From positions 1,312,001 to 1,376,000 of the forward strand of contig CAWJDT010000001.1 in the NCBI GenBank assembly GCA_963841735.1: a DNA stretch of 64,000 nucleotides, given 5' to 3'. The stretch is from an uncultured Actinomycetes bacterium. Its GTDB lineage: Bacteria > Actinomycetota > Thermoleophilia > RBG-16-64-13. The notes under the pieces were generated by a model. It was not told where the DNA came from and searched no databases. It saw only the letters and a program-made list of their open reading frames with translations. Positions 3,177-19,882 of this stretch are shown here, in pieces. The position numbers and the translations under genes are program-made. How positions within the stretch are numbered: position 1 is the first letter of the stretch; each line of letters opens with the position of its first letter.

Positions 3177-3187
3177 GTGATTCTCCT

Positions 3188-4156
3188 TTACGCGGCCATG
3201 AGCTTGTCGATGACCCGTCTCACAAGGGGGATGGTTTCGGGGTGGCGCACCACCAAGATGTCGGCGCCAGTGCCCAGAAGTGTCAGGCTGGTGTTCGATT
3301 CCCAAAGGAGGGCCCGCTGCTTCCAGTCGCCCCACTCGGCCGGCACGTCCTCGTTTGTGCGGGCTTCCTTGGCGCGCCAGGCTTCGTAGCCCACGGTAAG
3401 CACCAGCGGCTGCTGCAGACTGGCGTCACCGCCCAGCGCGGCCAGGCGGATGCGTTCCATCACCGAGTAGCTGTACTCCAAACCGTAGCCGAGAGCTCCG
3501 GTAGTGGGGTCGATGAGCATGCGATCGCGGCTTAGGCCCATGTCGCCTATGAGCACGTTGAGCTGTTTGGCCAGGTTGACGTCTATGGGGCTCTTGGCGA
3601 CTATGAGGTGATCGTTGGCCATGGCGGCCGCGACGATGGTGCGGTAATTCTTGTCTTCGCAGTTGCCCAGGGCGATCCGTTCGCCGGCTGCCTCCTCGGC
3701 CGCCGCGACCAGCACCTCGTTGTCCTTTTCTCTCTGGCCGGGACCGTAGACGATGAGGGGCAGAGTGGTGGCCTCGAGTACGCGCCGCACCGTCTGTTTG
3801 GCCTCCTTGGCCCCGGTGTCGCCCCTCTCTGGATGAGCGCTGTCAAGCGACAGGGCTATGAGGTCGGCACCCGCCTTCTCGGCCGCCGCGGCCCAGACGG
3901 CCGGGTCTTTCACGGCGTCTCCCCAGGCGTCAAGCAGCAGGCGCGACCACTCGTCGGGGCTGCGGTCGCTCACCTCCACCGCGATGACCGGCCGGTGAGG
4001 CATGGATCCTTCGAAGTGCAGAAACGGCAGACCGGTCTGGCCACCTACCGTGACGGTACTACCTCGGGTGCCGCCGTTGGCCGGGCCGGCCCCAAGGGTC
4101 ACTTCAGTGATCTTGCCGCTCCAACTCTCTTTGACTTCGGGCACTGCTACAGACAT
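3188..4156 (-). CDS. acsD: Corrinoid/Fe-S protein small subunit
   Basis: DPTTGALGYGLEYSYSVMERIRLAAL, IDVNLAKQLN and RHP motifs; lies between acsB and acsC. Confidence 0.96.
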   Translation of the reverse strand: MSVAVPEVKESWSGKITEVTLGAGPANGGTRGSTVTVGGQTGLPFLHFEGSMPHRPVIAVEVSDRSPDEWSRLLLDAWGDAVKDPAVWAAAAEKAGADLIALSLDSAHPERGDTGAKEAKQTVRRVLEATTLPLIVYGPGQREKDNEVLVAAAEEAAGERIALGNCEDKNYRTIVAAAMANDHLIVAKSPIDVNLAKQLNVLIGDMGLSRDRMLIDPTTGALGYGLEYSYSVMERIRLAALGGDASLQQPLVLTVGYEAWRAKEARTNEDVPAEWGDWKQRALLWESNTSLTLLGTGADILVVRHPETIPLVRRVIDKLMAA

Positions 4157-4240
4157 CCGGAATCTCCTCTCCTCGTCGAGCAGATCTCAATCGCATCCTG
4201 CCGGCGTGACTTCATTTGAACTGAGATCTTCTCGCCGCCA

Positions 4241-6514: not shown

Positions 6515-6518
6515 TCGC

Positions 6519-8507
6519 CTATACCTCCGACGCTACCGGCCGCTTGCCTGCCGAATAGATACTCACCGACTCGTCCGCGGGCACCTCGGGCTCAAGCTCT
6601 ACCATCTGACTGTCGCCGCTCTGGCCGAAACGCGCCGGGTCGTACTCGGTCAGACCGAGTTCGGCGCGCTTGGCGTCGATGTGCGCGATAGCCTTCTTGA
6701 TGAGTGCCGGGATGTCGGGCTCGAACTCGATTCCGCCTCCGAAGCGCGCCGTCCAGCCGTTCAGCATGAGGTCTTTGACCTCCGGGCTTCCGCCAACGGG
6801 GGAGGGCAGGCCGAAGAGCACGTAGGCGCCGGAAGCCGCGCAGTACGAACCGATGGCAAGTGCCTTCTCCGACATGTACTCCGGGCATATGCCCACCGCG
6901 GGCAGATCGGAGATGTCTTCTCCCAGACCGCCCTCAGTGGCGCACTCGGTAAGTATGGTGAGGATACGGGAGTTGTCCACGCAGGAACCGACGTGCAGCA
7001 CAGGCGGGATGCCGATGGCCTCGCACACCTCGCGCAGTCCGGCACCGGCTTGCTCCATGAACTCCGGCTTAAGATATCCGTACTTCGCCGCCCCCGTGGC
7101 CGCACAACCAGTGACTGCAACCAGCACGTCGTTCTTGATCAAGTCGGCGATGATCTCGGTAGTGGGGGCGTCCTGGGTCACCCGCGGGTTGTTGCAGCCC
7201 ACAACCGCGGCCAGACCCCGGATGCGGCCGGCTGCGATGGCGTCGTTCAAAGGACGGAACGAGCCGCGGAAGTGCCCGCCCTGCATGTAGCGCACGTATT
7301 CATGCGAGAAGCCGGCTATGAGCGCCTCGTCGGTCTGGGGGATGACCGTCTTCTTGCGATTGGGATAGTTGTCTATCGCGGCGCGCACGATGCCCTTCGC
7401 ACTTTGGTAGGCGTCGTGCTCGTCGAATTCCATGTGCACCGCTCCCTCGATCTTGGCCTTGGGGGAGGTGGTGATGAGTTTGGTGTGGTAATGGGTGGCC
7501 ACTTCGGCCAGAGCCTGCATGACGCACTGCACGTCGACGATCATAGCCTCGATGGCCCCGGTCGCGATGGCCAGCTCCTGCGAGAGGAAGTTGCCGGCGG
7601 GGGGGATGCCGTGTCGCATGAGCACCTCGTTGGCGGTGCAGCAGATGCCGGCCAGGTTGATGCCCTTTGCGCCCTTGCTCTTAGCGTACTCGATCAGTTC
7701 CGGGTCGGTGGAGGCCGCGACGATCATCTCCGCTACGATGGGCTCGTGGCCGTGGATAACGACGTTGACCTCGTCGTCCTTGAGCACTCCCAGGTTCACC
7801 CTGCTCTGTAGCGGAGTGGGGGTGCCGAACAGGATGTCGCTGATGTCGGTGGCCAGCATGGACCCGCCCCAGCCGTCCGCAAGGGACGTGCAGAGCACCT
7901 GGTCCAGAAGATGCTCTGCGTCCTGATCGACGCCCATGTGGGTACGATGCATCATCTCCACCACCTCGCGGTCGATGCCGCGGGGAGCGACCTTCTCTTT
8001 GTGCCAGCGCTCTTGCTGCGCCGCGCTCGCCCGCGAGAGATACATCAGCTCGCCGGTCTGCCTGCCGAACTCACCAAGGGCTGCCTCGGCGACATCAAGG
8101 GCGATGTCCAGCACCGGCCGGTCGCCGGTCTTGATGCCCATGTGGTCGGCTACGGCGCGGAGTTTCACCTCGTCGCGGATGCCGAAGCCATGCGTCTCGC
8201 CCTTGGCTACTGCCAGCAGGGCGAGCGCCATCCCGCGACCGTGGTCTGAGTGCGCGGAGGCGCCGGCGGCTACCGCCCGGGCGAAGTTGCGGGCCGAGAC
8301 AGTGGCTTGGGTGGCGCCGCATACTCCGCGCGTGGTCGTGCCTATGAGGCGGCAAGGACCCATTGCGCAGTTCTTGCAGCAGATGCCCTCAGCCCCTATG
8401 GGGCACGGTAGTATGTCGGCGGCCCGGTCGAAAGCGGTCTCAATCACACCTTCACATGAGCCGAGTACCTCACACGCCGCTGCGTCTGCACTTTTGCGTT
8501 CAGGCAT
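6519..8507 (-). CDS. cooS: Anaerobic Ni-CO dehydrogenase catalytic subunit
   Basis: CPIG..GICCKNCAMGPC, AHSDH, HGHEP, GICCTANE, GCNN and GSCVDN motifs. Confidence 0.97.
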   Translation of the reverse strand: MPERKSADAAACEVLGSCEGVIETAFDRAADILPCPIGAEGICCKNCAMGPCRLIGTTTRGVCGATQATVSARNFARAVAAGASAHSDHGRGMALALLAVAKGETHGFGIRDEVKLRAVADHMGIKTGDRPVLDIALDVAEAALGEFGRQTGELMYLSRASAAQQERWHKEKVAPRGIDREVVEMMHRTHMGVDQDAEHLLDQVLCTSLADGWGGSMLATDISDILFGTPTPLQSRVNLGVLKDDEVNVVIHGHEPIVAEMIVAASTDPELIEYAKSKGAKGINLAGICCTANEVLMRHGIPPAGNFLSQELAIATGAIEAMIVDVQCVMQALAEVATHYHTKLITTSPKAKIEGAVHMEFDEHDAYQSAKGIVRAAIDNYPNRKKTVIPQTDEALIAGFSHEYVRYMQGGHFRGSFRPLNDAIAAGRIRGLAAVVGCNNPRVTQDAPTTEIIADLIKNDVLVAVTGCAATGAAKYGYLKPEFMEQAGAGLREVCEAIGIPPVLHVGSCVDNSRILTILTECATEGGLGEDISDLPAVGICPEYMSEKALAIGSYCAASGAYVLFGLPSPVGGSPEVKDLMLNGWTARFGGGIEFEPDIPALIKKAIAHIDAKRAELGLTEYDPARFGQSGDSQMVELEPEVPADESVSIYSAGKRPVASEV

Positions 8508-8551
8508 CTTCTTCTCCTCTTCGAATCTGCTGTGCTGAGGGACGGCCGGGC

Positions 8552-8884
8552 CTAGTAGCGCCGGAAGTCCCCGGCCATCTCGCGGTCTTTGAGCTCAGTG
8601 GTTGTGTTTCTTCCGAGCACCGTGAACCAAGGCGAACCGTCCTCGTGCCTTCTTGGGAAAAGAGGAGCGGGGATTGTTTCGTCTGGTGTGTAGCCAGCCT
8701 TTTCCAGCGCGGCGCGGATGGAATCGACGGAGGCTACTGTCTCGTCGAACCTCACCGCGACTCGGCGCCGCGCCGCGCTCGCCGTCACCTGCTCGACGCC
8801 TTTGACCTCGAGTAGTGCTTGGCGGACGCGAAGCACATGATGGTCGCCATACATGGCCGGCAATTCTACGACTAGTGCGTTCAT
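8552..8884 (-). CDS. HMA/CopZ-fold protein with a His-substituted metal loop
   Basis: LPAMYGDHHVLRVRQALLEVKGVEQV...SIRAALEKAGY matches the HMA fold, with GDHH in place of CxxC. Confidence 0.8.
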   Translation of the reverse strand: MNALVVELPAMYGDHHVLRVRQALLEVKGVEQVTASAARRRVAVRFDETVASVDSIRAALEKAGYTPDETIPAPLFPRRHEDGSPWFTVLGRNTTTELKDREMAGDFRRY

Positions 8885-9318
8885 ACGCTTACATCTTCCT
8901 TCCCCCGGCGGGCCCGCTCGGCCAGCTCGGCTATGGTCGTCTGTTCAAAGTGGTCACGCACAATGTCCGCGGCTTCCACCCAGATGTGACGGGTGGGGCA
9001 GCCCGCGATGCGGTTGCAGTTTTGGCCCTCCTGACAAGGCGCTAGGCGGATGTCACCCTCCATCACCCGAAGCGCCTCCCCAACCGTGATGCTCTGAGGG
9101 GGCCGAGCTAGTTTAAAGCCTCCTTGCCTTCCGCGGAAGCCGACTACGAGACCGGCTGACTGAAGGTTACCCATAAGTTGCTGAACGTACGCGGGCGTCA
9201 GACCTTCGCAGTCTGCTATTTCCTGCTTGGTGAAGCACTTCGTCTCGGGGCCGGCCGCGAGCAGCACGAGTATTCTTGTGGCGAATCGACCTCGGCTCGA
9301 GAGACTGAACATGTCCAT
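8881..9318 (-). CDS. Rrf2-family transcriptional regulator (three-Cys, IscR-like)
   Basis: YVQQLMGNLQSAGLV..RGRQGGFKLARPPQSIT; CQEGQNCNRIAGC. Start is 9318 or 9312. Confidence 0.92.
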   Translation of the reverse strand: MDMFSLSSRGRFATRILVLLAAGPETKCFTKQEIADCEGLTPAYVQQLMGNLQSAGLVVGFRGRQGGFKLARPPQSITVGEALRVMEGDIRLAPCQEGQNCNRIAGCPTRHIWVEAADIVRDHFEQTTIAELAERARRGKEDVSV

Positions 9319-9331
9319 AGCCCCCAATAGT

Positions 9332-9368
9332 AAGTGACCTGATAATCTTATAGCGGTATAGGCCACTT
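9332..9368. promoter_or_regulatory. AT-rich imperfect inverted repeat, candidate Rrf2 operator
   Basis: AAGTGACCT-N19-AGGCCACTT just upstream of rrf2; the interior loosely resembles IscR-type boxes. Confidence 0.4.
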
Positions 9369-9491
9369 TTCAACTGGTGATATTGTATTGTGGTTCCCGG
9401 GGCGGGGTCGGCTGCCGAGCAGGCGCGGCTGCGTGCTTCCCGGCCCCTGATGGACTGTCTCATTATGCGGGATGTTAGGAGGCAAGCGTCT

Positions 9492-9725
9492 ATGTCCGAC
9501 GTACGCTGCCCAGGTCAAGATGGTAGAGACCTGAAAGTGAGCACCTGCTTCTGTCCCAATTGCGGGGTCGAGGTGGAGCTATTCTCCGATGAGCAACGAG
9601 TGAAGTGCCCCCAGTGCGGGGTATATGTCGATCAAGCTGAGGTGCCTTCGTGCGCTCAGTGGTGTGCCAAGGCCCGCGAGTGTCTAGGTGAGGAGCGATG
9701 GAGCCAGGTCAAAAAGTCGCAGTAG
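9492..9725 (+). CDS. Small Cys-rich zinc-ribbon-like protein
   Basis: AGGAGG RBS; RCPGQD...CPNC...CPQC...SCAQWC...C (nine Cys in 77 aa); overlaps cooC. Confidence 0.8.
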   Translation: MSDVRCPGQDGRDLKVSTCFCPNCGVEVELFSDEQRVKCPQCGVYVDQAEVPSCAQWCAKARECLGEERWSQVKKSQ

Positions 9726-10480
9726 CCGGAAAGGGCGGAGTCGGCAAGACCACGTTCAGCGCGCTTCTGGCATACGTGCTGGCGGAGGCGGGGAGGACGG
9801 TCTACGCCATCGACGCCGATCCCGACCCCACGCTGGGGGAAGCCCTCGGATTCCCCTCGTCTGTGCTGGCCCAGCTTGTCCCCATCGTTGAGATGAAGGA
9901 CCTAGTGGAAGAACGCACCGGTGCTCGTCCCGGTGAGTCCGGAGGTTACTTCCGTCTCAATCCACGTGTGGACGACATCCCGGCTAGGTTCTCGGTGTCG
10001 CACCGGGGCGTGCGTCTGCTCAAGATGGGCACGGTACGGGGGGCGGGCGCCGGGTGCGTATGTCCGGAGAACACCATGGTCCGCGCCTTGGTCACCCATC
10101 TGTTGCTGAGGGAGCAGGAGACCGTGCTCTTGGACATGGTGGCCGGCCTCGAGCATCTGGGACGGGGTACTGCCGGGGCGGTGGACGCCATGTACGTCGT
10201 GGTCGAACCCGGGCAGCGCAGTCTGGGAGTAGCCGCCGACATCGCGCACTTGGCCAAGGAAATAGGGATCCCCGCCATTTGGGCGGTGGCGAACAAGGTC
10301 CGTAGCGACGACGACCTGACCTTCATCCGCGAAAACCTTGCCGATCTGTCACTCGCCGGTTGGCTGCCATTGGACGGCCGCGTTGTAGACGCCGACATAC
10401 ATGCCGCGACGGCCTATGATGTCGCCCCGGAGTTGGCGGCGATTGTGAAAGAGATCGCCCGAGAGACCGGATTGCTCTAG
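9698..10480 (+). CDS. cooC: CODH/ACS nickel-insertion ATPase CooC (AcsF)
   Basis: GKGGVGKT, DADPD, GCVCP and DMVAGLEHLGRG motifs. Confidence 0.95.
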   Translation: MEPGQKVAVAGKGGVGKTTFSALLAYVLAEAGRTVYAIDADPDPTLGEALGFPSSVLAQLVPIVEMKDLVEERTGARPGESGGYFRLNPRVDDIPARFSVSHRGVRLLKMGTVRGAGAGCVCPENTMVRALVTHLLLREQETVLLDMVAGLEHLGRGTAGAVDAMYVVVEPGQRSLGVAADIAHLAKEIGIPAIWAVANKVRSDDDLTFIRENLADLSLAGWLPLDGRVVDADIHAATAYDVAPELAAIVKEIARETGLL

Positions 10481-10981: not shown

Positions 10982-11102
10982 TACAGGGTTTCCTCTCGTA
11001 TGTCAGCCGCAGCGGGGTCTCGGGCGGGTGCGCAAGAGCGGGCGGGTCAAATAAATAAAGCAATTGGAGTGTACCACCCGGCGCCCGCGAGCAGCGCCAG
11101 AC

Positions 11103-11420
11103 CTAGACTTCGGCGGACCGGCTCCCTTTGATGCCACCCTGGTAGAGGTTGCGGTTGGTCCATTCGGTCTGCCATTGACCGCGCCGTCTGTAAGGTCCGT
11201 CAAGGTGGTAAGTGCCCCCCTCGGCGTCAACACAGATGCCAACTCCCATCCGGTCGGCGTGCTTCTTGGCAAGATCCAGGTAAGGGTGCCAGCCGATAGG
11301 ATCGCGGGTGCTTTCGACATCATCCGGATCCTGCAGACGAGAGACGACGTAGCGTACCTCTTTGTAGCTGCTCACTGGCGGCCTCCCTTCGTGAGCATAT
11401 GCGTGCATGGACTCTATCAC
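11103..11420 (-). CDS. Hypothetical protein
   Basis: ORF with plausible composition; start uncertain. Confidence 0.4.
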   Translation of the reverse strand: MIESMHAYAHEGRPPVSSYKEVRYVVSRLQDPDDVESTRDPIGWHPYLDLAKKHADRMGVGICVDAEGGTYHLDGPYRRRGQWQTEWTNRNLYQGGIKGSRSAEV

Positions 11421-11566
11421 GCGCGGAGCGGCGGCGTGTTATACTGCGGCCAAGCATTCGTCAGGAATATGCTTTAGGCGCAGCGCCGAGCCTCTCAACC
11501 TCCCCGCTCAGTCTCCAGTCTTTCCCTCTCGTCTGTCGCAATGTAACTCCGTTCATGGAGGCTGTA

Positions 11567-11938
11567 GTGAATTCAGCAAAACTGTACGTGGGCAATCTCA
11601 GTTATGAGACGTCCGAAGCAAGTATCAGGACCGCTTTCGAGGCTCACGGCGAAGTGACTTCGGTCGCCCTGATCACCGACCGCGACACCGGCCGCCCCAA
11701 AGGCTTCGGTTTCGTGGAGATGGGATCACCCGACGAAGCGCAGAAGGCCAAGGCCGCTCTTGACGGCACCCAGATGGACGGTCGCGCTCTCAAGGTCGAC
11801 GTTGCCAAGGAGCAGGTGGCTCGCGCCCCTCGTTCCGGCGGCGGCTTCGGTGGTGGCGGCGGCGGCTACGGTGGTGGCGGCGGCGGCGGAAGCCGCGGCG
11901 GCTTCGGTGGCGGCGGCGGCGGCGGTAACCGCTGGTAG
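11567..11938 (+). CDS. RRM RNA-binding protein with Gly-rich tail
   Basis: KLYVGNLS (RNP2) and KGFGFVEM (RNP1); GGAGG RBS before GTG at 11567. Confidence 0.95.
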   Translation: MNSAKLYVGNLSYETSEASIRTAFEAHGEVTSVALITDRDTGRPKGFGFVEMGSPDEAQKAKAALDGTQMDGRALKVDVAKEQVARAPRSGGGFGGGGGGYGGGGGGGSRGGFGGGGGGGNRW

Positions 11939-11973
11939 TAGTCGCCCCGCGACTTACTCCTCACACTAGTGAC

Positions 11974-12001
11974 GAAACGCCGGCCTTCGGGCCGGCGTTT
12001 C
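11974..12001 (+). terminator. Intrinsic terminator hairpin
   Basis: GAAACGCCGGCC-TTCG-GGCCGGCGTTTC followed by T-rich sequence. Confidence 0.85.
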
Positions 12002-12017
12002 TGTTTGTAAGCACAAG

Positions 12018-12049
12018 AAGAAGAGGCCCGGAAATCCGGGCCTCTTCTT
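12018..12049. terminator. Second hairpin between convergent genes
   Basis: AAGAAGAGGCCCGGA-AA-TCCGGGCCTCTTCTT. Confidence 0.8.
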
Positions 12050-12143
12050 TGCTTTTGCTTTCACTGCCACCCGGGGTCACATGACCCCGGGAACGGCGGT
12101 TCGAGCCGCGCAGCCGGCCCTAGGGCCGGCTGCGCGCGCTGTC

Positions 12144-13736
12144 CTAGCTCTTCAGGATGGCTTCCGCCTCGGCGCGATTTGCGTCCATCAAGTAGGGGAT
12201 GCCGGTGACCCGGGTGCATTCTTCGGTGAGACTCATGAGGTCGGCACGGCGGATGGCGCCGATATTGAAAGCCCGCGCACCGGCCATCAGTTGTTGGAGA
12301 CCTACCCGAAGCTTCTGGGCGTAGGAGTAGAAGCCCACAGCGCCCAGCGGGAAGTTCTTCATCTCGTCCTTGCCGATGATGTCGGAGACTTCCTCCCAGC
12401 AGACGAAGATCTCTTCGGGAGTGCTGCCGTACTGGCCGACGGTGTTGGGTAGCCCGCCGTTGTTCATCCACATGCCGGCGTTCTTGCCCACCATGCCTGG
12501 GATCATGAGTGCTCGTCCCATGCAGACCGCCTTCGTGAAGGGCGCGCCCAGGGAGAGGGCCTTGAATATATGGTCCTCGGCGCTGAAGCCGCCGCCGAAG
12601 GCCAGGTCGGGCACGCGCTTGCCCAGGGCCGTCAGCTGGGCGGCAAAGTCGGCCGCGGCAGAGTGCAGGTAGAGGCTGGGCATGCCCCACTCTTCCATCA
12701 TGCGCCACGGGCTCATACCGGTGCCGCCGGGAGCACCGTCGATGGTGAGCAGGTCGATCTTAGCTTCGCTGCCCCACCTGAGTGCCATTGCCAGTTCGCG
12801 CAGCCCGTAAGCGCCTGTCTTGAGGGTGATGCGCTTGTAGCCAAGGCTGCGCAGCCGTTGGCACTCGGCCAGGAAGCCCTCTTCATCTATGAAGCCGAGG
12901 CGGCTGTGCCGCTCGAACTGCTTGAGAGCGCCGTCCTTGAAGGCCGCCTGGGTGATGGGGTCGGACGGATCGGGAGTGACGATGTAGCCACGCTTCTGCA
13001 GCTCGAGGGCCCGCTCGAGCGAGCCGACCTTGATCTCTCCGCCGATGCACTTGGCGCCCTGGCCCCACTTCAGCTCGATGGTGTCGAGGCCGTGCTTTTC
13101 GATGACATACTCGGCCACGCCCAGGCGCGTGTCTTCGACGTTCATCTGCACGAGAAGCTCACCGTAGCCGCGGTGATAGCGCTTGTAGGTCTCGATACGG
13201 CGGTCCATGTCGGGCGAGAGCTTGATCTTGCCCTTGGCGTCCAGTTCCAGTCCCGGATCGATGCCGCAGACGTTCTCGCCGCACACGCAGGTCACGCCGC
13301 TGATGGCAGCGCCCGTGGCGAAGTGCTCCCAGTTCTTGCGCGCGACTTCGGTGGAGCCCAGAGCGCCGGTGAACATCGGCGCCAGCATCTTCACCTTGAG
13401 GTCCCAGCCGTATTCGGTGCCGACGTTGACGTCGGGGAACGTGCAGGTGTCGGGGCTGGCCACAACGCCCTCGGGTAGGCCTTCGCCGCCAAGGGCGTAG
13501 CCCTGGATGTTCAGGTGTGAGTAGTCCACCGGGTAGTCTTTGTCGCCGCCGGCGGTGATGGAGCCGAATGGGCCGGGGTAGATGACCTCCCGTCCGCGGA
13601 AGGTGGCCTGAAAGACTTCGCAGTTGCCACGGCAACCGTCGATGCATCGGGTGCAAAGGCCAGAGCCGGGGACGACGCTACGTGAGCGGTTGGAAGTCTG
13701 GGATACGTCATTCGCATTGGGTCGCTGCAGATTCAC
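12144..13736 (-). CDS. Stand-alone FMN-binding glutamate synthase family protein
   Basis: IELKWGQGAKCIGG, IDGAPGGTG and GGF...MGRA motifs; N-terminal CTRCIDGCRGNC; no glutaminase domain. Confidence 0.9.
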   Translation of the reverse strand: MNLQRPNANDVSQTSNRSRSVVPGSGLCTRCIDGCRGNCEVFQATFRGREVIYPGPFGSITAGGDKDYPVDYSHLNIQGYALGGEGLPEGVVASPDTCTFPDVNVGTEYGWDLKVKMLAPMFTGALGSTEVARKNWEHFATGAAISGVTCVCGENVCGIDPGLELDAKGKIKLSPDMDRRIETYKRYHRGYGELLVQMNVEDTRLGVAEYVIEKHGLDTIELKWGQGAKCIGGEIKVGSLERALELQKRGYIVTPDPSDPITQAAFKDGALKQFERHSRLGFIDEEGFLAECQRLRSLGYKRITLKTGAYGLRELAMALRWGSEAKIDLLTIDGAPGGTGMSPWRMMEEWGMPSLYLHSAAADFAAQLTALGKRVPDLAFGGGFSAEDHIFKALSLGAPFTKAVCMGRALMIPGMVGKNAGMWMNNGGLPNTVGQYGSTPEEIFVCWEEVSDIIGKDEMKNFPLGAVGFYSYAQKLRVGLQQLMAGARAFNIGAIRRADLMSLTEECTRVTGIPYLMDANRAEAEAILKS

Positions 13737-13786
13737 TATCGGTCTCCTTCAGCGTTACTGGATTGCCTGATTGTCTCGTTATGCCG

Positions 13787-14491
13787 CTAGTTCTCGGCCA
13801 GGACCCCACGTAGCTGCCACCGGACGCACTGGAAACCTCGGCCCAGTTCGCACATGACGCAGGTGTCGGGGATGTTCTCGACCATAGTCGTTTGGGATTC
13901 GCAGAGCCCGCAGATGCCCGGCTCGGTCTGAGGGCCGGGGCAGGGGGTGATGGTCATGGGGCAGACCTCGACGCAGCTGTTGCAGCGCTTGCAGAGGTCG
14001 GGCCTTTTGTCGAAGGGCAGGGCCACGTGCCGGTCGGCGCCCCGTCCCACAAAGCCCAGGGAGTGCGACTGCCATACCTCGCCACAGATGCGCACGCACT
14101 TGCCGCAAAGGACGCAGTTGTTATTGCGCATGGGGTAGCGCGAACGGGTGACGCCCACCCGCGCGGCCAGGTCTTGGATGGCGCGGGAGTTCGGGGCCTC
14201 GGCCAGCAGGAGCTCCACGATGTTCCGCCGCGCGCGCATCACCGCTTCGGTGTGCGCCTCCACCACCAGGCCCTCTCGGGCCTCCAGGGTGCACGACGCG
14301 GTCATCTTGCGCCGGCCGTTCTCGACGACTTCTACGATGCAGACCCGGCACGCACCGATGGGGCTGACTCCGGGCATGTGACACAGATTGGGGATGCAGA
14401 TCCCCGCCTCGAGGGCCGCTTCCAGCACGCTGGATCCCTCTGGCGCCTGGATCTGGGCCCCGTCTACCGTGATTGTGACTGTCTTTGCCAT
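13787..14491 (-). CDS. Short NuoG/HydA-N-like Fe-S protein (2Fe-2S plus 4Fe-4S clusters, no catalytic domain)
   Basis: IPNLCH..GACRVCIVE..ASC; CVLCGKCVRIC; CKRCNSCVEVCP; extra Cys-rich tail. Confidence 0.9.
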   Translation of the reverse strand: MAKTVTITVDGAQIQAPEGSSVLEAALEAGICIPNLCHMPGVSPIGACRVCIVEVVENGRRKMTASCTLEAREGLVVEAHTEAVMRARRNIVELLLAEAPNSRAIQDLAARVGVTRSRYPMRNNNCVLCGKCVRICGEVWQSHSLGFVGRGADRHVALPFDKRPDLCKRCNSCVEVCPMTITPCPGPQTEPGICGLCESQTTMVENIPDTCVMCELGRGFQCVRWQLRGVLAEN

Positions 14492-14502
14492 GGAATGACC
14501 TC

Positions 14503-16350
14503 TCAGACTCTGCCAATGGCATCGGAGGGGCACGACTCCGTACATTCGCCGCATCCCTGGCACAACTCCGGGTCTATCCGGAAGGCGTCGTCCTCGCTGA
14601 TAGCGCTGTGCGGACAAGCGTCGAGACAGGCTCCGCACTGTGCGCAGAGATCCTGGTCGATCTCATACTTCACGAGCGCCTTGCAGACGCCGGCGGGACA
14701 GCAATGGTCTTTGATGTGAGCCTCGTACTCGTTCTCGAAGTAGCGCAAAGTCGAGAGCACCGGGTTGGGAGCTGTCTTGCCCAGCGCGCATAGCGACCCG
14801 ACCGACATAGTCCAGGCCAGGTCTCTCAGCGTGTCCAGTTGCCTGGCGTTGCCGCGGCCTTCGGTAATATCGGTGAGGATCTCGAGCATCCGGTCGGTGC
14901 CCAACCTGCAGGGCACGCATTTGCCGCAGGATTCCTCTTTGAGGAACTTGAGGAAGTACTTGGCCACGTCGACCATACAGGCCGATTCGTCCATGACCAC
15001 CATGCCGCCCGAACCCATCATCGAGCCGGCCTCCGCCAGGGCCTCGTAGTCCACCGGGAGGTCGAACTGCGAGACCGGCAGGCAGCCACCCGACGGCCCG
15101 CCCGTCTGCACCGCTTTGATGGTTTTGCCGTTCTGCGCGCCGCCGCCGATATCGAAGATGATCTGCCGGAGCGTCGTGCCCATCTCGACCTCGACCAGTC
15201 CGGTGTTCTTCACGTGACCGGTAAGGGCGAAGACCTTGGTGCCCTTGCTCTTCTGGGTGCCCTTGCCCGCGAACCAAGCCGCCCCGTTCAGGATGATGCG
15301 GGGGACGTTGGCCCAAGTCTCAACGTTGTTGAGAGCGGTCGGCAGGTCCAGATAGCCGCGTTCGACCGTGTGGACGTCCTTGGGCCGGGGTTCGCCGACT
15401 TCGCCCTCCAGAGAAGCCATGAGCGCGGTGGACTCTCCGCAGATGAAGGCCCCACCGCCCCGGGCCACTTTTACGTCGAAGCTATAGCCGGTGCCCAGGA
15501 TGTTGTCTCCCAAGAGGCCGAGGTCCCGCGCTCGTTCGATGGCCTCGCGAGTGTTCATAACCGCAAGGGGATACTCGTTTCGCACATAAACGTAGCCCTG
15601 ACGGGAACCGACCGCATACGCGCCGATCATCATCCCCTCAAGGATCGAATGCGGATTGCCCTCGAGCAGGCCGCGGTCCATGTAGGCCCCGGGGTCTCCC
15701 TCGTCGGCATTGCAGACTACATACCGCTCGCTGCCAGGAGCGCTGCGGCACTGTTCCCACTTGCGGGCCGTCGAGTATCCGCCGCCTCCGCGGCCTCGTA
15801 GGCCCGACAGCTTGATCTCGGCGATCACGGCTTCGGGGTCCATGGAAGTGAGCACGCGGCCCAACGCCGAGTAGCCTCCGGAAGCGATGTAGTCTCCGAT
15901 ATCGCAGGGGTCGACAAGCCGGTTACGGCCGATAAGCTCCCGGTCCTGCTTTGCGAAGAAGGGGAGGTCTGCCGGCGTGCGGGCTATCTGGCCGGTGGTG
16001 TCATCGGTGTAGCAGAGCCGATCGATCACTCGGCCGTTCATCACCGATTCGGAGACGATCTCGGCCACATCTGCTGGAGTGACCTTGCAGTACAGAACGT
16101 CGAGAGGCTCGACTATGAGCAGCGGCTCCTGCTGGCAGAAGCCCTGGCAGCCGGTGACGCGGACATTGACCTCGTCGGTCAGGCCGTTCTCGTCGAGACG
16201 GGCGCGCACTGCCTGAAGGACGGCCAGCGAGCCTGATGCCTCCCCGCACGTGCCGCTCGACAGCGTGATGCGCATGGGCCACGCCTGCCGCTCCCTGGCC
16301 AGTCCCTCCCTGAACGACGCTAGGGCCTCCGGGTCTTGCAGTCTAGGCAT
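14503..16350 (-). CDS. NuoF/HydB-like FMN/NADH-binding subunit
   Basis: GLRGRGGGG, CNADEGDPG, GAFICGE, ESCGKCVPCRLG and CPAGVC; C-terminal 2x[4Fe-4S]; N-terminal thioredoxin-like 2Fe-2S domain. Confidence 0.93.
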   Translation of the reverse strand: MPRLQDPEALASFREGLARERQAWPMRITLSSGTCGEASGSLAVLQAVRARLDENGLTDEVNVRVTGCQGFCQQEPLLIVEPLDVLYCKVTPADVAEIVSESVMNGRVIDRLCYTDDTTGQIARTPADLPFFAKQDRELIGRNRLVDPCDIGDYIASGGYSALGRVLTSMDPEAVIAEIKLSGLRGRGGGGYSTARKWEQCRSAPGSERYVVCNADEGDPGAYMDRGLLEGNPHSILEGMMIGAYAVGSRQGYVYVRNEYPLAVMNTREAIERARDLGLLGDNILGTGYSFDVKVARGGGAFICGESTALMASLEGEVGEPRPKDVHTVERGYLDLPTALNNVETWANVPRIILNGAAWFAGKGTQKSKGTKVFALTGHVKNTGLVEVEMGTTLRQIIFDIGGGAQNGKTIKAVQTGGPSGGCLPVSQFDLPVDYEALAEAGSMMGSGGMVVMDESACMVDVAKYFLKFLKEESCGKCVPCRLGTDRMLEILTDITEGRGNARQLDTLRDLAWTMSVGSLCALGKTAPNPVLSTLRYFENEYEAHIKDHCCPAGVCKALVKYEIDQDLCAQCGACLDACPHSAISEDDAFRIDPELCQGCGECTESCPSDAIGRV

Positions 16351-16858
16351 TGGCGATCACCTCATTGTTGCCGGCGTGGCTTTCACCAGCTGCTGCACCG
16401 TCCGTCGCGCGGACGTCGCCAAGCAGCGTTTTCAACTTGGCCGGGGTCATGTGGTCGTGATACACGCCGTCGATCACCACCACCGGGCTCAGAGCACAGG
16501 CTCCGAGGCAGTTGACGGTTTCGAGGGTGAACGCCCTGTCTTCGGTGGTATCGCCGGGCTGGACTTTGAGTTGCGCGGTCACCTCGTCGAGCAGCTTGGG
16601 TGCTCCCCGGACGTGGCAGGCCGTGCCCGCACAGACCGTCAAGAGATGACGTCCGCGGGGCTTTAGGCTGAAAGCCTTGTAGAAGTTGGCCAGGCGGAAT
16701 ACTTCGATGAGTGGCATGTCAAATGAGGCGGAGACCTGACGGAGCACCTCCTCAGGGAGGTATCCGCACTGCCCCTGGATGTCGTGCAAGACCTCCATGA
16801 TGGCGAACGGCTCCGTGCCGCGGTTTTCGATGATCGTTTCGAGGTTACTCGTTTCCAT
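16343..16858 (-). CDS. NuoE/HydC-like 2Fe-2S subunit
   Basis: VCAGTACHVRG...VNCLGACALSP. Confidence 0.93.
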   Translation of the reverse strand: METSNLETIIENRGTEPFAIMEVLHDIQGQCGYLPEEVLRQVSASFDMPLIEVFRLANFYKAFSLKPRGRHLLTVCAGTACHVRGAPKLLDEVTAQLKVQPGDTTEDRAFTLETVNCLGACALSPVVVIDGVYHDHMTPAKLKTLLGDVRATDGAAAGESHAGNNEVIANA

Positions 16859-17140
16859 GCTTTCTCCGGGCCCTCCTGACCTTCACGCGCTTCGCACCTT
16901 GCCGGGAGATTTGCGCGTCTCCTCGCTGTTTGACGCGTACCGGCCGTATCTTGCCAAGCCTTTCGCCCGCAAACGCAGAAGAGGGATCGAGCCATAAAGC
17001 CCTATCTCGCGGCCCTGCTCCGAAGACCGGCGCGCCATGCATCGGTGCTTGTGGCATCTAATTGCCGCGCCACTGTAGCAGCAGGTTGCGCAAACAGCAA
17101 CATAAGCAGCCAGTATTGGGCGCGGGGAGTTGGACTGCGG

Positions 17141-17318
17141 CGGCAATATTGCCGGTAGCGGTGCGGCAAGTGTCCTTCTTTCTGCCGGCCGTGGGAGCGG
17201 GAGACCTTCCCCCGTGTTGGGTGTGGCAGCGGGTGTTGGCGCGATTTGTTCCCGTCCACGCGACGGGCGACAAGCGGCATAATTGCCGCTGGCACTAAGG
17301 ACATCGGCAGATTTGCTG
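17141..17318. promoter_or_regulatory. Three CGGCA-N4-TGC(C/T)G palindromes, candidate NrpR operators
   Basis: CGGCAATATTGCCG at 17141-17154; AGCGGCATAATTGCCGCT at 17273-17290; CGGCAGATTTGCTG at 17305-17318. Confidence 0.55.
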
Positions 17319-17333
17319 GTAAGATTTGCTTGT

Positions 17334-18344
17334 ATGAGAGAGAGCACCGAAGAGAAACGTCTCGCTATCCTGCGGATACTCCGCGAGGCTGCAGGACCGC
17401 TGGGGAGCTCCAAGATCACGGAGCGGCTCTCGGCGATGGGTCACGATGTGAGCGAGAGAACCGTGCGCTTTCACCTGCTCGACATGGACAAGGGCGGGCT
17501 TACGCAGAACCTGGGCCGCAACGGGCGGGCCATCACGCCTCGGGGCCTGAGCGAGGTAGACACCTCCAGGGGCTTCGAGAGGGTCGGCATCCTGTCGGCC
17601 AAGATCGATCAGATGACCTACAAGATGGACTTTGATCTGGTCAAGAAGGCGGGCACGGTGGTGGTGAACGTGAGCGTCATCCCCAGAGACCAACTCGAGC
17701 GCTCCATTCCTCTTATGAGCCGGGTGTTTGCCGCCGGCTACGCCATGGGCAAGCTTATCGCGCTGCTGCAGCCCGGTGAGAGCGTCGGGCAGATGGCCGT
17801 ACCCGAGGGTAACGTGGGCATAGCCACCGTATGCTCGATCACGGTGAACGGAGTGCTGGTGGCCAACGGAATCCCCACCAACTCGCGTTTTGGGGGACTA
17901 CTGGAGATGCGTGAGCACAGAGCGACCCACTTCGCCGAGTGGATCAACTACGACGGCACGACCCTGGACCCGCTGGAGATATTTATCCGCAGCGTCATGA
18001 CCGACTATGTAGGGGCCACGCGGACGGGCAACGGCCTCATCGGCGCCAGCTTCCGGGAGGTGCCTGCCGACAGCCGCGATCACGTGCTGGAGCTTGGCCG
18101 CCAGATGGACCAGGTCGGTTTGGGCGCCATCCACTTGGTTGGTTGGCCTGGGCGCCCGCTTCTGGAGATCCCGGTGAGTGAGGGGCGCCTCGGCATTGTG
18201 GTGGTGGGTGGACTGAATCCGGTGGCCATCCTAGAAGAGAAGGGTATCCCGGTGTTTCGCACAGGGGCATTGGCCGGGCTTATGGACTACGGACGGCTGT
18301 TCCACTACGAAGAACTGGGCGAGCGCGCTCGTCTGCTCGACTGA
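17334..18344 (+). CDS. nrpR: NrpR-type (DUF128) nitrogen regulator: wHTH plus one NRD domain
   Basis: SERTVRFHL HTH; ATVCSITVNGVL, Y.GTTLDPLEIF and GGLNP motifs. Confidence 0.88.
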   Translation: MRESTEEKRLAILRILREAAGPLGSSKITERLSAMGHDVSERTVRFHLLDMDKGGLTQNLGRNGRAITPRGLSEVDTSRGFERVGILSAKIDQMTYKMDFDLVKKAGTVVVNVSVIPRDQLERSIPLMSRVFAAGYAMGKLIALLQPGESVGQMAVPEGNVGIATVCSITVNGVLVANGIPTNSRFGGLLEMREHRATHFAEWINYDGTTLDPLEIFIRSVMTDYVGATRTGNGLIGASFREVPADSRDHVLELGRQMDQVGLGAIHLVGWPGRPLLEIPVSEGRLGIVVVGGLNPVAILEEKGIPVFRTGALAGLMDYGRLFHYEELGERARLLD

Positions 18345-18445
18345 GCGCAAACGAGCATCCGACTCAGCTTGCGTGCCGGTGCTAACACAATCGGCCCTTC
18401 TCCCACTATCATATGACTGTCGCTACCCGGCACGAGAGGAAACAG

Positions 18446-19882
18446 ATGATCAAGTTCAGCGAGCGGCAGCTCAAGACGCCCAGGCAAATGCGGCCGGTGT
18501 ATCTGGTTACTGCCGGCCAGTCCAAGTACGCCAGGGCGATCCCAGAGAAGAGAACCGAGGAATTGTGCATCGACGCCTTCACCATGGCGGCGGATTTGCT
18601 CGGTCTCACTCCGGCCGACCTCAAGAAGTATATCCATACCTGCTACTACGGTCATTTCGCCGACCACTTCGGCGACCAGCTCCTGGGCGAAGCGGTTATC
18701 CACGACCGGCTGGGCCTTGATCCTCTAGGCAACGTGGGCATCAAGTCGGGCGGCGCCACCGGCGGCTCCACTCTGTGGGAGGCCGCCAAGGCCGTGGCCT
18801 CCGGGTACTCGGATTGCGTTCTTGCCATGGGCTGGGAGCGCATGGACGAGGTGCCCACCGATGAGGGCAACTTCCTTATAGCCTGCGCGGCCGACCGCGA
18901 CTGGGAGTCTCCCATGGGCCAGATCTACACTGGCTACTACGCGGTCATGGCTCAGAAGTACTGGCAGGTGTTCGGCAAGGCCGAAGCCTCGTTCAGGCGC
19001 ACTCTCGCTGAGATCTCGGTGAAGCACCACGGGTATGCCCGCTTCAATCCGTTCGCGCATGGCGCCATGAAGATCACCGTGGACGACGTGATGATGTCGC
19101 CCATGGTGGCCGATCCGCTGCGGGCCCTCGATGCCTGCCTCATGAGCGTGGGGGCGGCCTGCGCGATTCTCTGCGACGAGGATACGGCCATGGAGCTCAC
19201 CAAGAACAGCAAGAACAAGCCGCTCCGTATCTGTGTGACGGCCGGCTCGCACACTCTGCGCCCGGCCGATCGGCGGCCCATGGAGATCCCTCTGCTGCCC
19301 AACGAGTCGGCCGACCAGTACAAGAATCTGGGCAAGGAATTCCCCGGAGGCGACAGGTACCCGGGCTTCACCGGCTTTCTCGCGGCGAGGGTGGCGGCCT
19401 ACTATGCCTACCACATGACGGGTGTAGTCGATCCCACCGAGGACTTCGACGTCATCGAACTGCACGACGCCTTCACCATCAGCGACGTGCAAACCTACGA
19501 GGACATCGGCATCCGGCCCTACGGCCACGGCCGCGAATATGTGGAGTCGGGCGACTGTTACCACACCAACCCGCACACCGGCAAACCGGGCAAGCTGCCC
19601 TCCAACCTCTCCGGCGGGCTGATCGGTTGCATGCACGCGGTGGGTGCGAGCGGCATCATGCAGGTCTTCGAGATCGCCACCCAACTTTGGGGACGGTGGG
19701 CGGAAGTCCACGGCGATGAGAAACGCTGGAAGGAGTTCGGCCGGGAGAAACCGGCAGACTGGACCGACCTGCAGGTGAAGGGCGCCAAGAGGGCCCTATC
19801 CGTCAGTCACGCGGGCGTGGGCTCGCATGTGACGGCGACCATCCTCCAGGATCCCGATCATATGCTCAAGAAAGACGCGTGA
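18446..19882 (+). CDS. Thiolase-fold protein (SCP-x/Ltp2-like)
   Basis: IELHDAF and NLSGGLIGCMHAVGASG motifs; followed by a DUF35 gene. Confidence 0.85.
   Translation: MIKFSERQLKTPRQMRPVYLVTAGQSKYARAIPEKRTEELCIDAFTMAADLLGLTPADLKKYIHTCYYGHFADHFGDQLLGEAVIHDRLGLDPLGNVGIKSGGATGGSTLWEAAKAVASGYSDCVLAMGWERMDEVPTDEGNFLIACAADRDWESPMGQIYTGYYAVMAQKYWQVFGKAEASFRRTLAEISVKHHGYARFNPFAHGAMKITVDDVMMSPMVADPLRALDACLMSVGAACAILCDEDTAMELTKNSKNKPLRICVTAGSHTLRPADRRPMEIPLLPNESADQYKNLGKEFPGGDRYPGFTGFLAARVAAYYAYHMTGVVDPTEDFDVIELHDAFTISDVQTYEDIGIRPYGHGREYVESGDCYHTNPHTGKPGKLPSNLSGGLIGCMHAVGASGIMQVFEIATQLWGRWAEVHGDEKRWKEFGREKPADWTDLQVKGAKRALSVSHAGVGSHVTATILQDPDHMLKKDA

Follow-up and report, generated by a model that had tools for sequence, protein, structure and literature searches.

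Genes for a HydABC-type electron module and a glutamate synthase-like flavoprotein share an apparent operon divergent from nrpR in an uncultured actinobacterium

What would a HydABC-like diaphorase do in one operon with a glutamate synthase-like (Glt-like) flavoprotein, next to a gene for the nitrogen regulator NrpR? This question is raised by a stretch of 64,000 nucleotides (hereafter the window, C1:1312001-1376000) in the assembly of an uncultured Actinomycetes bacterium, which comprises 2.82 Mb in 8 contigs and is 89.7% complete. Four co-directional genes on the minus strand occupy positions 12144-16858 of the window, and nrpR is transcribed away from them. The answer that we prefer, tentatively and with slightly less than even confidence, is that the four genes encode a Type 2 Bfu enzyme whose two donors, NADH and reduced ferredoxin, would jointly reduce the FMN of the Glt-like protein, which in turn would act on 2-iminoglutarate formed from 2-oxoglutarate and free ammonia, and that the operon would be released from repression by NrpR when 2-oxoglutarate is high. 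The five genes are:

12144-13736, minus strand: gene for the Glt-like Fe-S flavoprotein, 530 aa, GTG start
13787-14491, minus strand: bfuA, 234 aa, NuoG-N-terminal-like, Fe-S-only
14503-16350, minus strand: bfuB, 615 aa, long NuoF-like FMN/NADH subunit
16343-16858, minus strand: bfuC, 171 aa, NuoE/HoxE-like thioredoxin-like 2Fe-2S protein
17334-18344, plus strand: nrpR, winged-helix domain plus NRD1/NRD2, divergent from the bfu operon

The tight spacing of the minus-strand genes, with an overlap of 8 nt between bfuC and bfuB and gaps of 11 nt to bfuA and 50 nt to the Glt-like gene, fits the operon reading. A first-pass annotation, made from the DNA letters, had called all five genes, and each lies where it was placed and has the expected domains; gene content and layout therefore stand, but the starts of bfuA and nrpR had to be corrected. 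The open reading frame listed for bfuA, 13787-14638, was overlong; 15 relatives start at the methionine of MAKTV, which sets the gene at 13787-14491. The same annotation had seen no H-cluster, molybdopterin, GltD or amidotransferase domain. Our Pfam and NCBIfam domain scans of the four operon proteins agree, and GXGXG domains were likewise not found in them.

The BfuCBA electron module

Domains, motifs and alignments place the BfuB-BfuC core among enzymes of the Bfu (HydABC-type) kind. BfuC matched positions 2-144 of the 145 positions of PF01257 (E = 5.5e-46) as well as the HoxE and NuoE families of NCBIfam, and these domain matches supply the [2Fe-2S] site C1 of the Bfu family. BfuB consists of an N-terminal thioredoxin-like ferredoxin region followed by Complex1_51K, SLBB and NADH_4Fe-4S domains, with the motif CCPAGVC at residues 550-556, and it ends in two CxxCxxCxxxCP motifs (CAQCGACLDACP and CQGCGECTESCP) with two Fer4 matches at residues 562-612, that is, in a C-terminal ferredoxin domain with two [4Fe-4S] sites (B3 and B4). 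The best solved match was HydB of the NiFe-Hyd enzyme from Acetomicrobium mobile (7t2r_B; E = 2e-215, residues 28-615), followed in order by 9mqx_B from WorABCSL, 8a6t_B, 7q4v_B and 9n5u_B. The match thus runs end to end against solved bifurcating subunits (A. mobile HydB, the B subunit of WorABCSL, HydB from T. kivui and from A. woodii, as well as NfnB), and NuoF of complex I aligned only with residues ~148-550.

In the main text of Schut et al. (2022, PMC9304861), bifurcating BfuB proteins are separated from others by the ligands of the B2 site, the C-terminal B3/B4 clusters, the pair A202/M204, and F182. The B2-site ligands in A. mobile are given there as C438, C476, H525, C531 and C536; the position of C476 holds Thr in about two thirds of BfuB sequences, and the His is absent from non-bifurcating HydB homologues. 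In our alignment to 7t2r_B, these ligands map to C458, T496, H545, C551 and C556 of BfuB, and A202/M204 correspond to A222/M224. Residue 182 of this chain is Lys by count, so the published F182 has no mapped position. The cysteines of the B1 [4Fe-4S] motif (C475, C478, C481 and C522) also align, in agreement with an intact FMN/NADH site. The first-pass annotation had recognised in the NuoF-like protein the architecture of bifurcating HydB/BfuB subunits, and both the full-length match to solved BfuB proteins and the special ligands support that view.

The annotation had also described an N-terminal 2Fe-2S domain in this protein. The domain, B5, is present (NF041612 match), but its cysteine motif departs from the CX4C...CX3C of the family: both the window protein and 8 relatives have SSGTCG (S31...C35-G36) at the first Cys pair, where CxxxxC is retained by 5 further BfuB sequences of Glt-linked loci. 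The wider clade motif LSSGTCG[EQ]ASGS, at BfuB residues 28-40 (window ~16232-16270), occurs in 9 of 14 Glt-linked BfuB sequences. To judge from the residues present, a B5 site of this type may bind metal differently or be empty. In the bifurcating NfnABC of C. saccharolyticus, as described in PMC11829005, B5 and B2 both contain zinc, with B1-FMN-C1 as the minimal site for bifurcation, so the degenerate B5 motif need not matter.

BfuA is a reduced subunit with a Fer2_4 domain (2Fe-2S motif) and two CxxCxxCxxxC motifs for 4Fe-4S clusters; motif and domain inspection identified neither a His-ligated cluster (HxxxCxxC stretch) nor a catalytic domain in it. Type 2 Bfu enzymes are defined in PMC9304861 by a BfuA that keeps clusters A1, A2 and A4, is devoid of A3 and A5, and leaves the third substrate to a separate subunit; the A3 and A5 motifs are indeed missing here. 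The best solved match of BfuA was WorA (9mqx_A, 247 aa; E = 2e-34), over residues 4-185. Beyond the match, a C-terminal tail contains six cysteines (residues 184-222) that are invariant in all 15 Glt-linked BfuA sequences. In WorA, a tail with a zinc finger and a helix recruits WorS and places cluster S4 10.7 Å from A4 (PMC12318220), and by analogy the Cys-rich tail of BfuA probably docks its catalytic subunit. The structure model of BfuA (mean predicted local distance difference test score, pLDDT, 55; residues 119-234 below 50) was too poor to describe the tail, which is why its docking role is argued from the analogy.

Among known systems, WorABCSL (Acetomicrobium mobile / Eubacterium limosum; PDB 9MQX; PMC12318220) likewise combines a BfuBC core with an Fe-S-only BfuA of ~240 aa that feeds a separate catalytic module; it provides the best solved match of BfuA and the second-best of BfuB, and a Cys-rich C-terminal BfuA tail is present in both. 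It differs in its partner, which is the tungstopterin protein WorL with the polyferredoxin WorS, whereas the partner here is an FMN/Fe-S Glt-like protein; residues 186-234 of the BfuA tail do not align with WorA; and WorABCSL works oxidatively, whereas a reductive reaction (confurcation) from a nitrogen-controlled operon would be expected here. NiFe-HydABCSL, FeFe-HydABC and NfnABC (7T2R, 8A6T, 7Q4V, 7P5H, 9N5U) share full-length homology in BfuB and BfuC and the B1, B2-site, B3/B4 and FMN motifs, but the operon is without an H-cluster, NiFe subunits or an NfnA-type FAD domain, its BfuA is devoid of A3 and A5, and B5 is variant.

The Glt-like flavoprotein and its neighbours

The Glt-like protein, whose N-terminus MNLQRPNAND agrees with those of its relatives, belongs to a family that is, on its sequences, compact, extremely conserved and uncharacterised. 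Relatives were found in at least 589 genome stretches among species-representative genomes. The best 80 are 73-91% identical and come from metagenome-assembled genomes (MAGs) labelled Chloroflexota, Planctomycetota, Nitrospirota, Bacillota, Spirochaetota and others, and the database names are only "FMN-binding glutamate synthase family protein" or similar. At 50% clustering, 1053 matches were obtained among 1.8 billion representatives, and the best 150 of these include about a dozen full-length divergent Glt-like lineages of 31-58% identity. A search of the ESM Atlas returned the family alone, under automatic "glutamate synthase" names. In the domain databases, no NCBIfam match was found, and PF01645 gave a weak, partial match to residues 294-412 (E = 7e-13; 48.9 bits, with a cut-off of 20.4).

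Profile comparisons were more specific. In hhalign, the family aligned with eight archaeal-type GltB FMN subunits over 268 columns (probability 98.5%, E = 2e-15), and the archaeal-type GltB profile matched GltS of A. brasilense with E = 2e-74. On this basis the protein is a distant homologue of the FMN domain of glutamate synthase. Its structure model (mean pLDDT 83) is an FMN (beta/alpha)8 barrel, for which GltS 6s6s provides the longest aligned stretch, 346 residues. Through the two profile alignments, E154 aligns with the Glu of SGEGG in A. brasilense GltS, K229 with the Lys of QGAKPG (K937 by count) and R249 with the second Arg of IARLR (R957), each being conserved in at least 90% of 30 Glt-like sequences; Glu234 stands in for the Gln of GGQL. 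The 3Fe-4S motif of GltS has no counterpart, since C470, C473 and C478 of the archaeal GltB are unmatched and the aligned region is free of Cys. The family has instead an N-terminal CX2CX3CX3C motif (C28, C31, C35 and C39), nearly invariant also in members without a Bfu neighbour, which to judge from this pattern probably binds the cluster where electrons enter.

The protein can thus be set beside the known glutamate synthases (A. brasilense GltS, 1EA0, 2VDC and 6S6S; the ferredoxin-dependent Synechocystis Fd-GltS, 1OFD; and the split archaeal/Thermotoga-type GltB2; the general mechanism is treated in PMC8097209). Shared features are an FMN barrel with the motifs K-x-G-Q-G-A-K, IDG-x-x-GGTG and GG-x, the three aligned residues (Glu, Lys, Arg), an Fe-S cluster feeding the FMN (a predicted one in the Glt-like protein) and a nitrogen-assimilation context. 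The Glt-like protein differs in having the N-terminal CX2CX3CX3C and not the CX5CX4C 3Fe-4S motif, and its operon has no glutaminase, central or GXGXG domains, either within its proteins or next to them. Of the hallmarks of a glutamate synthase, the operon therefore provides the FMN barrel and three aligned residues; the 3Fe-4S motif, glutaminase and GXGXG are missing.

We compared the gene neighbourhoods of the best 80 Glt-like loci, 39 of which have at least 4 kb on both sides. Bfu genes were located within 6 kb of the Glt-like gene in 8 of the 80 loci (5 of the 39 with full flanks) and NrpR was near it in 34 (17 of 39), so the Glt-like gene is linked to NrpR more often than to Bfu. Other recurrent neighbours encode P-II, Amt, archaeal-type GltB (of archaeal-type glutamate synthase, GOGAT) with a GltB1-like amidotransferase, HydN/PadI-like ferredoxin, PadH-like NAD(P)H flavoprotein, a PPDK_N-type protein of 884 aa, hisH and hisF.

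Seen from BfuA, the association is much tighter. Among 20 BfuA loci, 13 encode proteins of at least 63% identity and 7 of 34-36%. All 12 close loci with upstream sequence have NuoE and NuoF, 12 of the 13 have an adjacent Glt-like gene, in three different gene orders, and 8 of the 13 have a divergent NrpR. The Glt-like gene lies 3' of bfuA in most of these close loci and 5' of bfuC in L098; among the Glt-anchored loci, nrpR lies between bfuA and the Glt-like gene in L030, and the Glt-like gene comes first in L016. In the exception, L095, bfuA is followed by two Amt genes, and a Glt-like gene of 72% identity is located on a different contig. No Glt-like gene is present in any of the 7 loci (Eubacterium, Sporomusa) whose BfuA is 34-36% identical. 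The cassette is recorded under Actinomycetota, Planctomycetota, Verrucomicrobiota, Methylomirabilia and Thermodesulfobacteriota/"Deltaproteobacteria", MAG labels that may be wrong. The neighbourhood and the NrpR link on which the first-pass annotation had built are thus conserved in MAGs labelled as several phyla, and the candidate operators described below recur in all nine orthologous spacers. In a tree of 87 Glt-like proteins, 8 of the 13 Bfu-linked rows form one well-supported clade and the rest are scattered; Bfu linkage requires at least three state changes. Overall, BfuA proteins of this clade seem to serve the Glt-like enzyme specifically, which itself would draw on different electron donors in different lineages, as expected of a catalytic subunit with exchangeable input modules.

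Several other arrangements were observed. In four Dehalococcoidales MAG loci (L024, L045, L052, L061), genes for ferredoxin, a PPDK_N-like protein, the Glt-like protein, HisH, a PadH-like protein, a GltB1-like amidotransferase, HisF and archaeal GltB are co-directional. The 884-aa protein has only a PPDK_N (PEP-synthase nucleotide-binding) domain, and in nine loci (L018, L024, L036, L037, L040, L046, L054, L061, L067) its gene stops a median of 17 nt ahead of the Glt-like gene; in these lineages it could reflect a step that requires ATP, or a kinase with a regulatory role. In four Nitrospirota MAG loci (L041, L042, L058, L068), tandem Glt-like paralogues are followed by nrpR and then a P-II gene, and in three of these (L041, L042, L068) a gene for an HTH-cupin regulator lies upstream of the paralogues.

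NrpR and its candidate operators

The nrpR product contains HTH_12 (PF08461, E = 4.5e-16) and PF01995 (E = 4e-77), and thereby the winged helix and NRD1/NRD2 that define NrpR. It is the sole NrpR gene found in the assembly. In nine orthologous regions a CAT triplet (ATG read on the opposite strand) does not vary, making ATG 17334 a more likely start than TTG 17283. The 475 bp spacer between nrpR and bfuC contains three palindromes, and the following elements were annotated in it and at the other end of the operon:

17276-17287, no strand: O1 palindrome GGCATAATTGCC, GGCA-N4-TGCC; candidate site of autoregulation, 47 nt upstream of the nrpR ATG
17142-17153, no strand: O2 palindrome GGCAATATTGCC, GGCA-N4-TGCC
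17100-17095, minus strand: -35-like TTGCTG, 17 nt upstream of the -10-like hexamer
17072-17077, minus strand: -10-like hexamer TACAGT, its T, A and last T invariant in 9 of 9 orthologous spacers
17053-17066, no strand: O3 palindrome GGCATCTAATTGCC, GGCA-N6-TGCC; candidate NrpR operator over the probable bfu transcription start
12018-12049, minus strand: terminator-like hairpin with a 14-pair stem, 9 G-C pairs and a T-rich tail, ~95 nt past the stop codon of the Glt-like gene

The same three palindromes were found in the same order in all nine orthologous nrpR-bfuC spacers. In an alignment of these spacers, 23 of 24 half-site columns are invariant, as compared to 1 of 14 columns within the palindrome spacers and 20 of 357 other intergenic columns. 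O3 starts 5 nt past the conserved TAnAnT hexamer (17077-17072), so a protein bound there would cover the likely bfu transcription start. A sigma-70 consensus scan of 11900-17400 returned no promoter, and the -10 and -35 assignments derive solely from conservation. Across the whole assembly, GGCA-W4-TGCC has 3 copies, 2 of them in the nrpR-bfuC spacer, and GGCA-N6-TGCC with at least five A/T in its spacer also has 3, 1 of them there. The copies outside the spacer lie within long open reading frames, as do all the palindromes at C1:242523, C1:227733, C1:968427 and C5:63356, and a wider regulon was not found in the assembly. In the best 80 Glt-like loci, GGCAA-N4-TTGCC occurs in 14 copies, whereas the other spacings of 0-8 average 2.75; several copies are immediately upstream of the Glt-like gene or next to nrpR, at -62 (L030), -83 (L035), -232 (L043) and -248 (L044).

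Archaeal NrpR is a repressor of nif and glnA whose action depends on 2-oxoglutarate (PMC9765008), and its operator consensus is GGAAN6TTCC (as quoted in bioRxiv 10.1101/2024.03.05.583561). By their conservation and position, O1-O3 are inferred to be NrpR operators that would respond to 2-oxoglutarate. The regulator has the same domain set as in Methanococcus maripaludis and Methanosarcina mazei, the candidate operators are palindromic, and the 4-6-4 layout of O3 is that of GGAA-N6-TTCC. Unlike in the archaea, the host is a bacterium, the half-site is GGCA/TGCC, the spacing is N4 in 2 of the 3 sites, and in this assembly the sites are confined to the operon divergent from the regulator gene itself.

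Another conserved stretch (TTGGCAAG ... GGCCG) is found at window ~16930-16955, in the ~200-nt bfu leader, in most of the nine relatives, and could represent an additional half-site or an RNA element. An Rfam scan of 11000-19000 returned only sub-threshold matches to terminator hairpins, at 11923-12085, and none in the bfu leader. The hairpin, read 12049-12018, is the probable end of the operon. It is bidirectional and would also serve a convergent gene for a bacterial RRM_1-domain protein (window 11399-11938), which adjoins the operon also in the closest relative, L090.

The proposed reaction and its rivals

Under the proposal, bfuC, bfuB, bfuA and the Glt-like gene would encode one soluble iron-sulfur flavoenzyme, in which the cut-down BfuA wires the BfuBC core to the catalytic subunit. 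NADH would donate electrons at the FMN of BfuB and reduced ferredoxin at its two C-terminal 4Fe-4S clusters; the electrons would merge at B1-FMN-C1 and pass over the BfuA clusters to the CX2CX3CX3C cluster and then the FMN of the Glt-like protein. There, 2-iminoglutarate formed from 2-oxoglutarate and free ammonia would be reduced to glutamate, with neither a glutaminase nor ATP. NrpR bound to the three palindromes would repress the operon and its own gene, and 2-oxoglutarate, the signal of nitrogen starvation, would release it. Gene content, motifs, homology and the conservation of cassette and palindromes are observations, and complex, substrate, direction and regulation are what we infer from them.

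Energetically, the couple of 2-oxoglutarate plus NH4+ and glutamate lies at about -0.12 to -0.13 V at 1 M, by our own estimate from the equilibrium of glutamate dehydrogenase (GDH), and falls by ~30 mV with each tenfold drop in NH4+, and lower still at a high ratio of glutamate to 2-oxoglutarate. At micromolar ammonium the couple would be near or below NADH, so that electrons added from ferredoxin would let amination proceed favourably with no ATP spent. The host should have reduced ferredoxin at its disposal, since the window encodes subunits of carbon monoxide dehydrogenase (CODH) and acetyl-CoA synthase (ACS), a CooC-like ATPase and a 2-oxoacid:ferredoxin oxidoreductase. These genes also mark the host as an anaerobic actinobacterium, possibly an acetogenic one. 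The Wood-Ljungdahl gene set lies just before the bfu operon region, at window 1827-10480, with two genes for CdhD-family corrinoid Fe-S proteins, ACS/CODH beta (757 aa), a CooS-type CODH (662 aa), an HMA-domain protein, an Rrf2 regulator and a CooC/ParA-like ATPase.

Several results weigh against this proposal. The choice of 2-oxoglutarate and ammonia is drawn from no more than three aligned residues, whose counterparts in GltS (Glu of SGEGG, Lys of QGAKPG and Arg of IARLR) belong to the site that binds 2-oxoglutarate and reduces 2-iminoglutarate. In a phmmer search of the PDB, the Glt-like protein had no sequence match at E <= 1, solved GltS included, and the match of its family profile to solved GltS was marginal (E = 0.067). 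By fold, type-2 IPP isomerase (IDI-2; Z 26.0), mandelate dehydrogenase (25.5) and IMPDH (~23) scored above GltS 6s6s (21.3), flavocytochrome b2 was as close as GltS among the FMN barrels, and the Foldseek E-values were all ~1e-8 to 1e-9. With IDI-2, alpha-hydroxy-acid oxidases and IMPDH/GMPR ranking at or above GltS, the protein might be an FMN/Fe-S reductase of another 2-oxo acid with ammonia, of a cyclic imine or of a different C=N or C=C bond, and would then resemble GltS through common descent only. The weak PF01645 match, Glu234 at the GGQL Gln, a substrate loop one residue shorter and the complete absence of the QGAK motif from some divergent members fit that account. We rate it as rather unlikely, because comparison of profiles points specifically to the FMN domain of GltB, the three residues aligned with GltS (Glu, Lys, Arg) are so widely conserved, and the neighbours are nitrogen-assimilation genes around the glutamate/glutamine/2-oxoglutarate node together with a regulator of the 2-oxoglutarate-sensing type. 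Distinctly unlikely, in our estimate, is a glutamine-dependent variant, a Bfu-driven GOGAT in which the Glt-like core would recruit separately encoded GltB1 and GltB3 (GXGXG) or a HisH-like glutaminase. The genome does carry, at C5:165-171 kb (L087), a fused amidotransferase-ferredoxin-FMN GltB and a GXGXG protein beside glutamine synthetase (GS); each of the six genomes in the family sample that have a Glt-like gene (G000, G058, G004, G010, G016, G040) also has a GXGXG gene; and in G010 and G016 a Glt-like gene of 45-46% identity lies ~2 kb from one. In the four Dehalococcoidales loci described above, the hisH and GltB1-type neighbours of the Glt-like gene make glutamine use possible. Yet none of the 13 close BfuA cassettes had an amidotransferase match, in a Pfam scan that covered window proteins only, the canonical GOGAT genes elsewhere already own an FMN subunit, and the Dehalococcoidales hisH and hisF exceed the NCBIfam equivalog cut-offs and are thus probably histidine genes.

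The wiring and the regulation are open to objection as well. We regard it as improbable that BfuCBA is a one-donor diaphorase, for NADH or ferredoxin, that serves the Glt-like enzyme, or that the two are separate enzymes sharing an operon. Such an arrangement would accord with the degenerate N-terminal 2Fe-2S motif of BfuB in this clade, with the 72 of 80 Glt-like loci (34 of 39 with full flanks) that have no Bfu neighbour, and with some Dehalococcoidales in which the Glt-like gene is paired with a HydN/PadI-like ferredoxin and a PadH-like flavoprotein, apparently for simple NAD(P)H input; no fused form of 929-2650 aa, BfuA-Glt included, was found at E <= 1e-30, which says little. It is opposed by BfuB, which carries the features that set bifurcating proteins apart from non-bifurcating NuoF/HoxF (the B2-site ligands with their His, a ferredoxin domain at the C-terminus, and the A/M pair), by the NfnABC precedent of bifurcation with zinc at B5 and B1-FMN-C1 as minimal site (PMC11829005), and by the Glt-like gene lying beside BfuA in 12 of 13 close loci despite rearranged order. 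As for direction, Bfu confurcation onto an acceptor with a standard potential above that of NADH would depart from the classic case. Oxidation of glutamate or an amine, which the first-pass annotation had also considered, seems to us unlikely, because a high-potential couple would have to reduce both NAD+ and ferredoxin. A long shot is a true bifurcase with NADH as the sole donor, in which downhill reduction of 2-iminoglutarate, at ammonium levels that are not scarce, would draw one electron from the flavin site of BfuB and drive its partner uphill onto ferredoxin, as crotonyl-CoA reduction does in Bcd/Etf. Lastly, the archaeal operator GGAA-N6-TTCC, at one mismatch or less, is absent from 16859-17333, and the window has 10 such sites against ~20 expected.

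The other nitrogen genes bear on what amination by NADH and ferredoxin would add. The genome has GS and a split archaeal-type GOGAT. At C5:165818-170700 (L087 3458-8713), the Glu_synthase domain and GS are each split over two overlapping frames, which may be assembly frameshift errors or real breaks; a second Glu_synthase/GXGXG cluster at C5:174000-181000 (L087 12503-19000) is followed by HdrD-like (Fer4 + CCG) and GltD-like proteins. No ELFV-type GDH was found in the assembly or in a 96%-complete congener of the same genus that also carries the Glt-like gene. In a sample of 21 genomes of the family, 18 have GDH and 17 a GXGXG gene, and none was found that would rely solely on the Glt-like gene for glutamate. 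The first-pass annotation had suggested an alternative to GS/GOGAT. The operon is indeed without a glutaminase, but with GS and GOGAT in the same genome the complex would be an additional route, not a replacement.

The Bfu types named in PMC9304861 include FeFe, NiFe, Nfn, Fdh, F420, Wor, FdhFeFe, Bam, Codh, Por, Mbh, Nuo and Rub, with hydrogen, formate, NADP, F420, aldehydes, CO, pyruvate, quinone and peroxide as substrates, and 18 of 57 BfuB clades are uncharacterised. "Glutamate", "GltB" and "Glt" do not occur in its main text; its supplementary clade table may list this neighbourhood. Literature searches returned nothing on a bifurcating or ammonium-dependent glutamate synthase of this type, papers on acetogenic Chloroflexi and Actinobacteria mention GltD/Nfn only, and Baymann 2018 has GltS only among flavoprotein structures. 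What is new here is a proposed catalytic partner of the Glt-like kind and proposed nitrogen regulation for the Bfu family, along with the three conserved GGCA-N4/N6-TGCC palindromes, which offer a directly testable operator for a bacterial NrpR.

If the enzyme does work as proposed, a biosynthetic, nitrogen-regulated member would join the Bfu family. Ammonium is otherwise assimilated by GDH, which is cheap and of low affinity, or by GS/GOGAT, which has high affinity and costs one ATP per nitrogen. Confurcation would make a third route, in which ferredoxin electrons force reductive amination at low ammonium; if instead NADH alone were bifurcated, glutamate synthesis would regenerate reduced ferredoxin and conserve energy at no ATP cost. 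The third route would suit energy-starved anaerobes, and relatives of the Glt-like protein are widespread.

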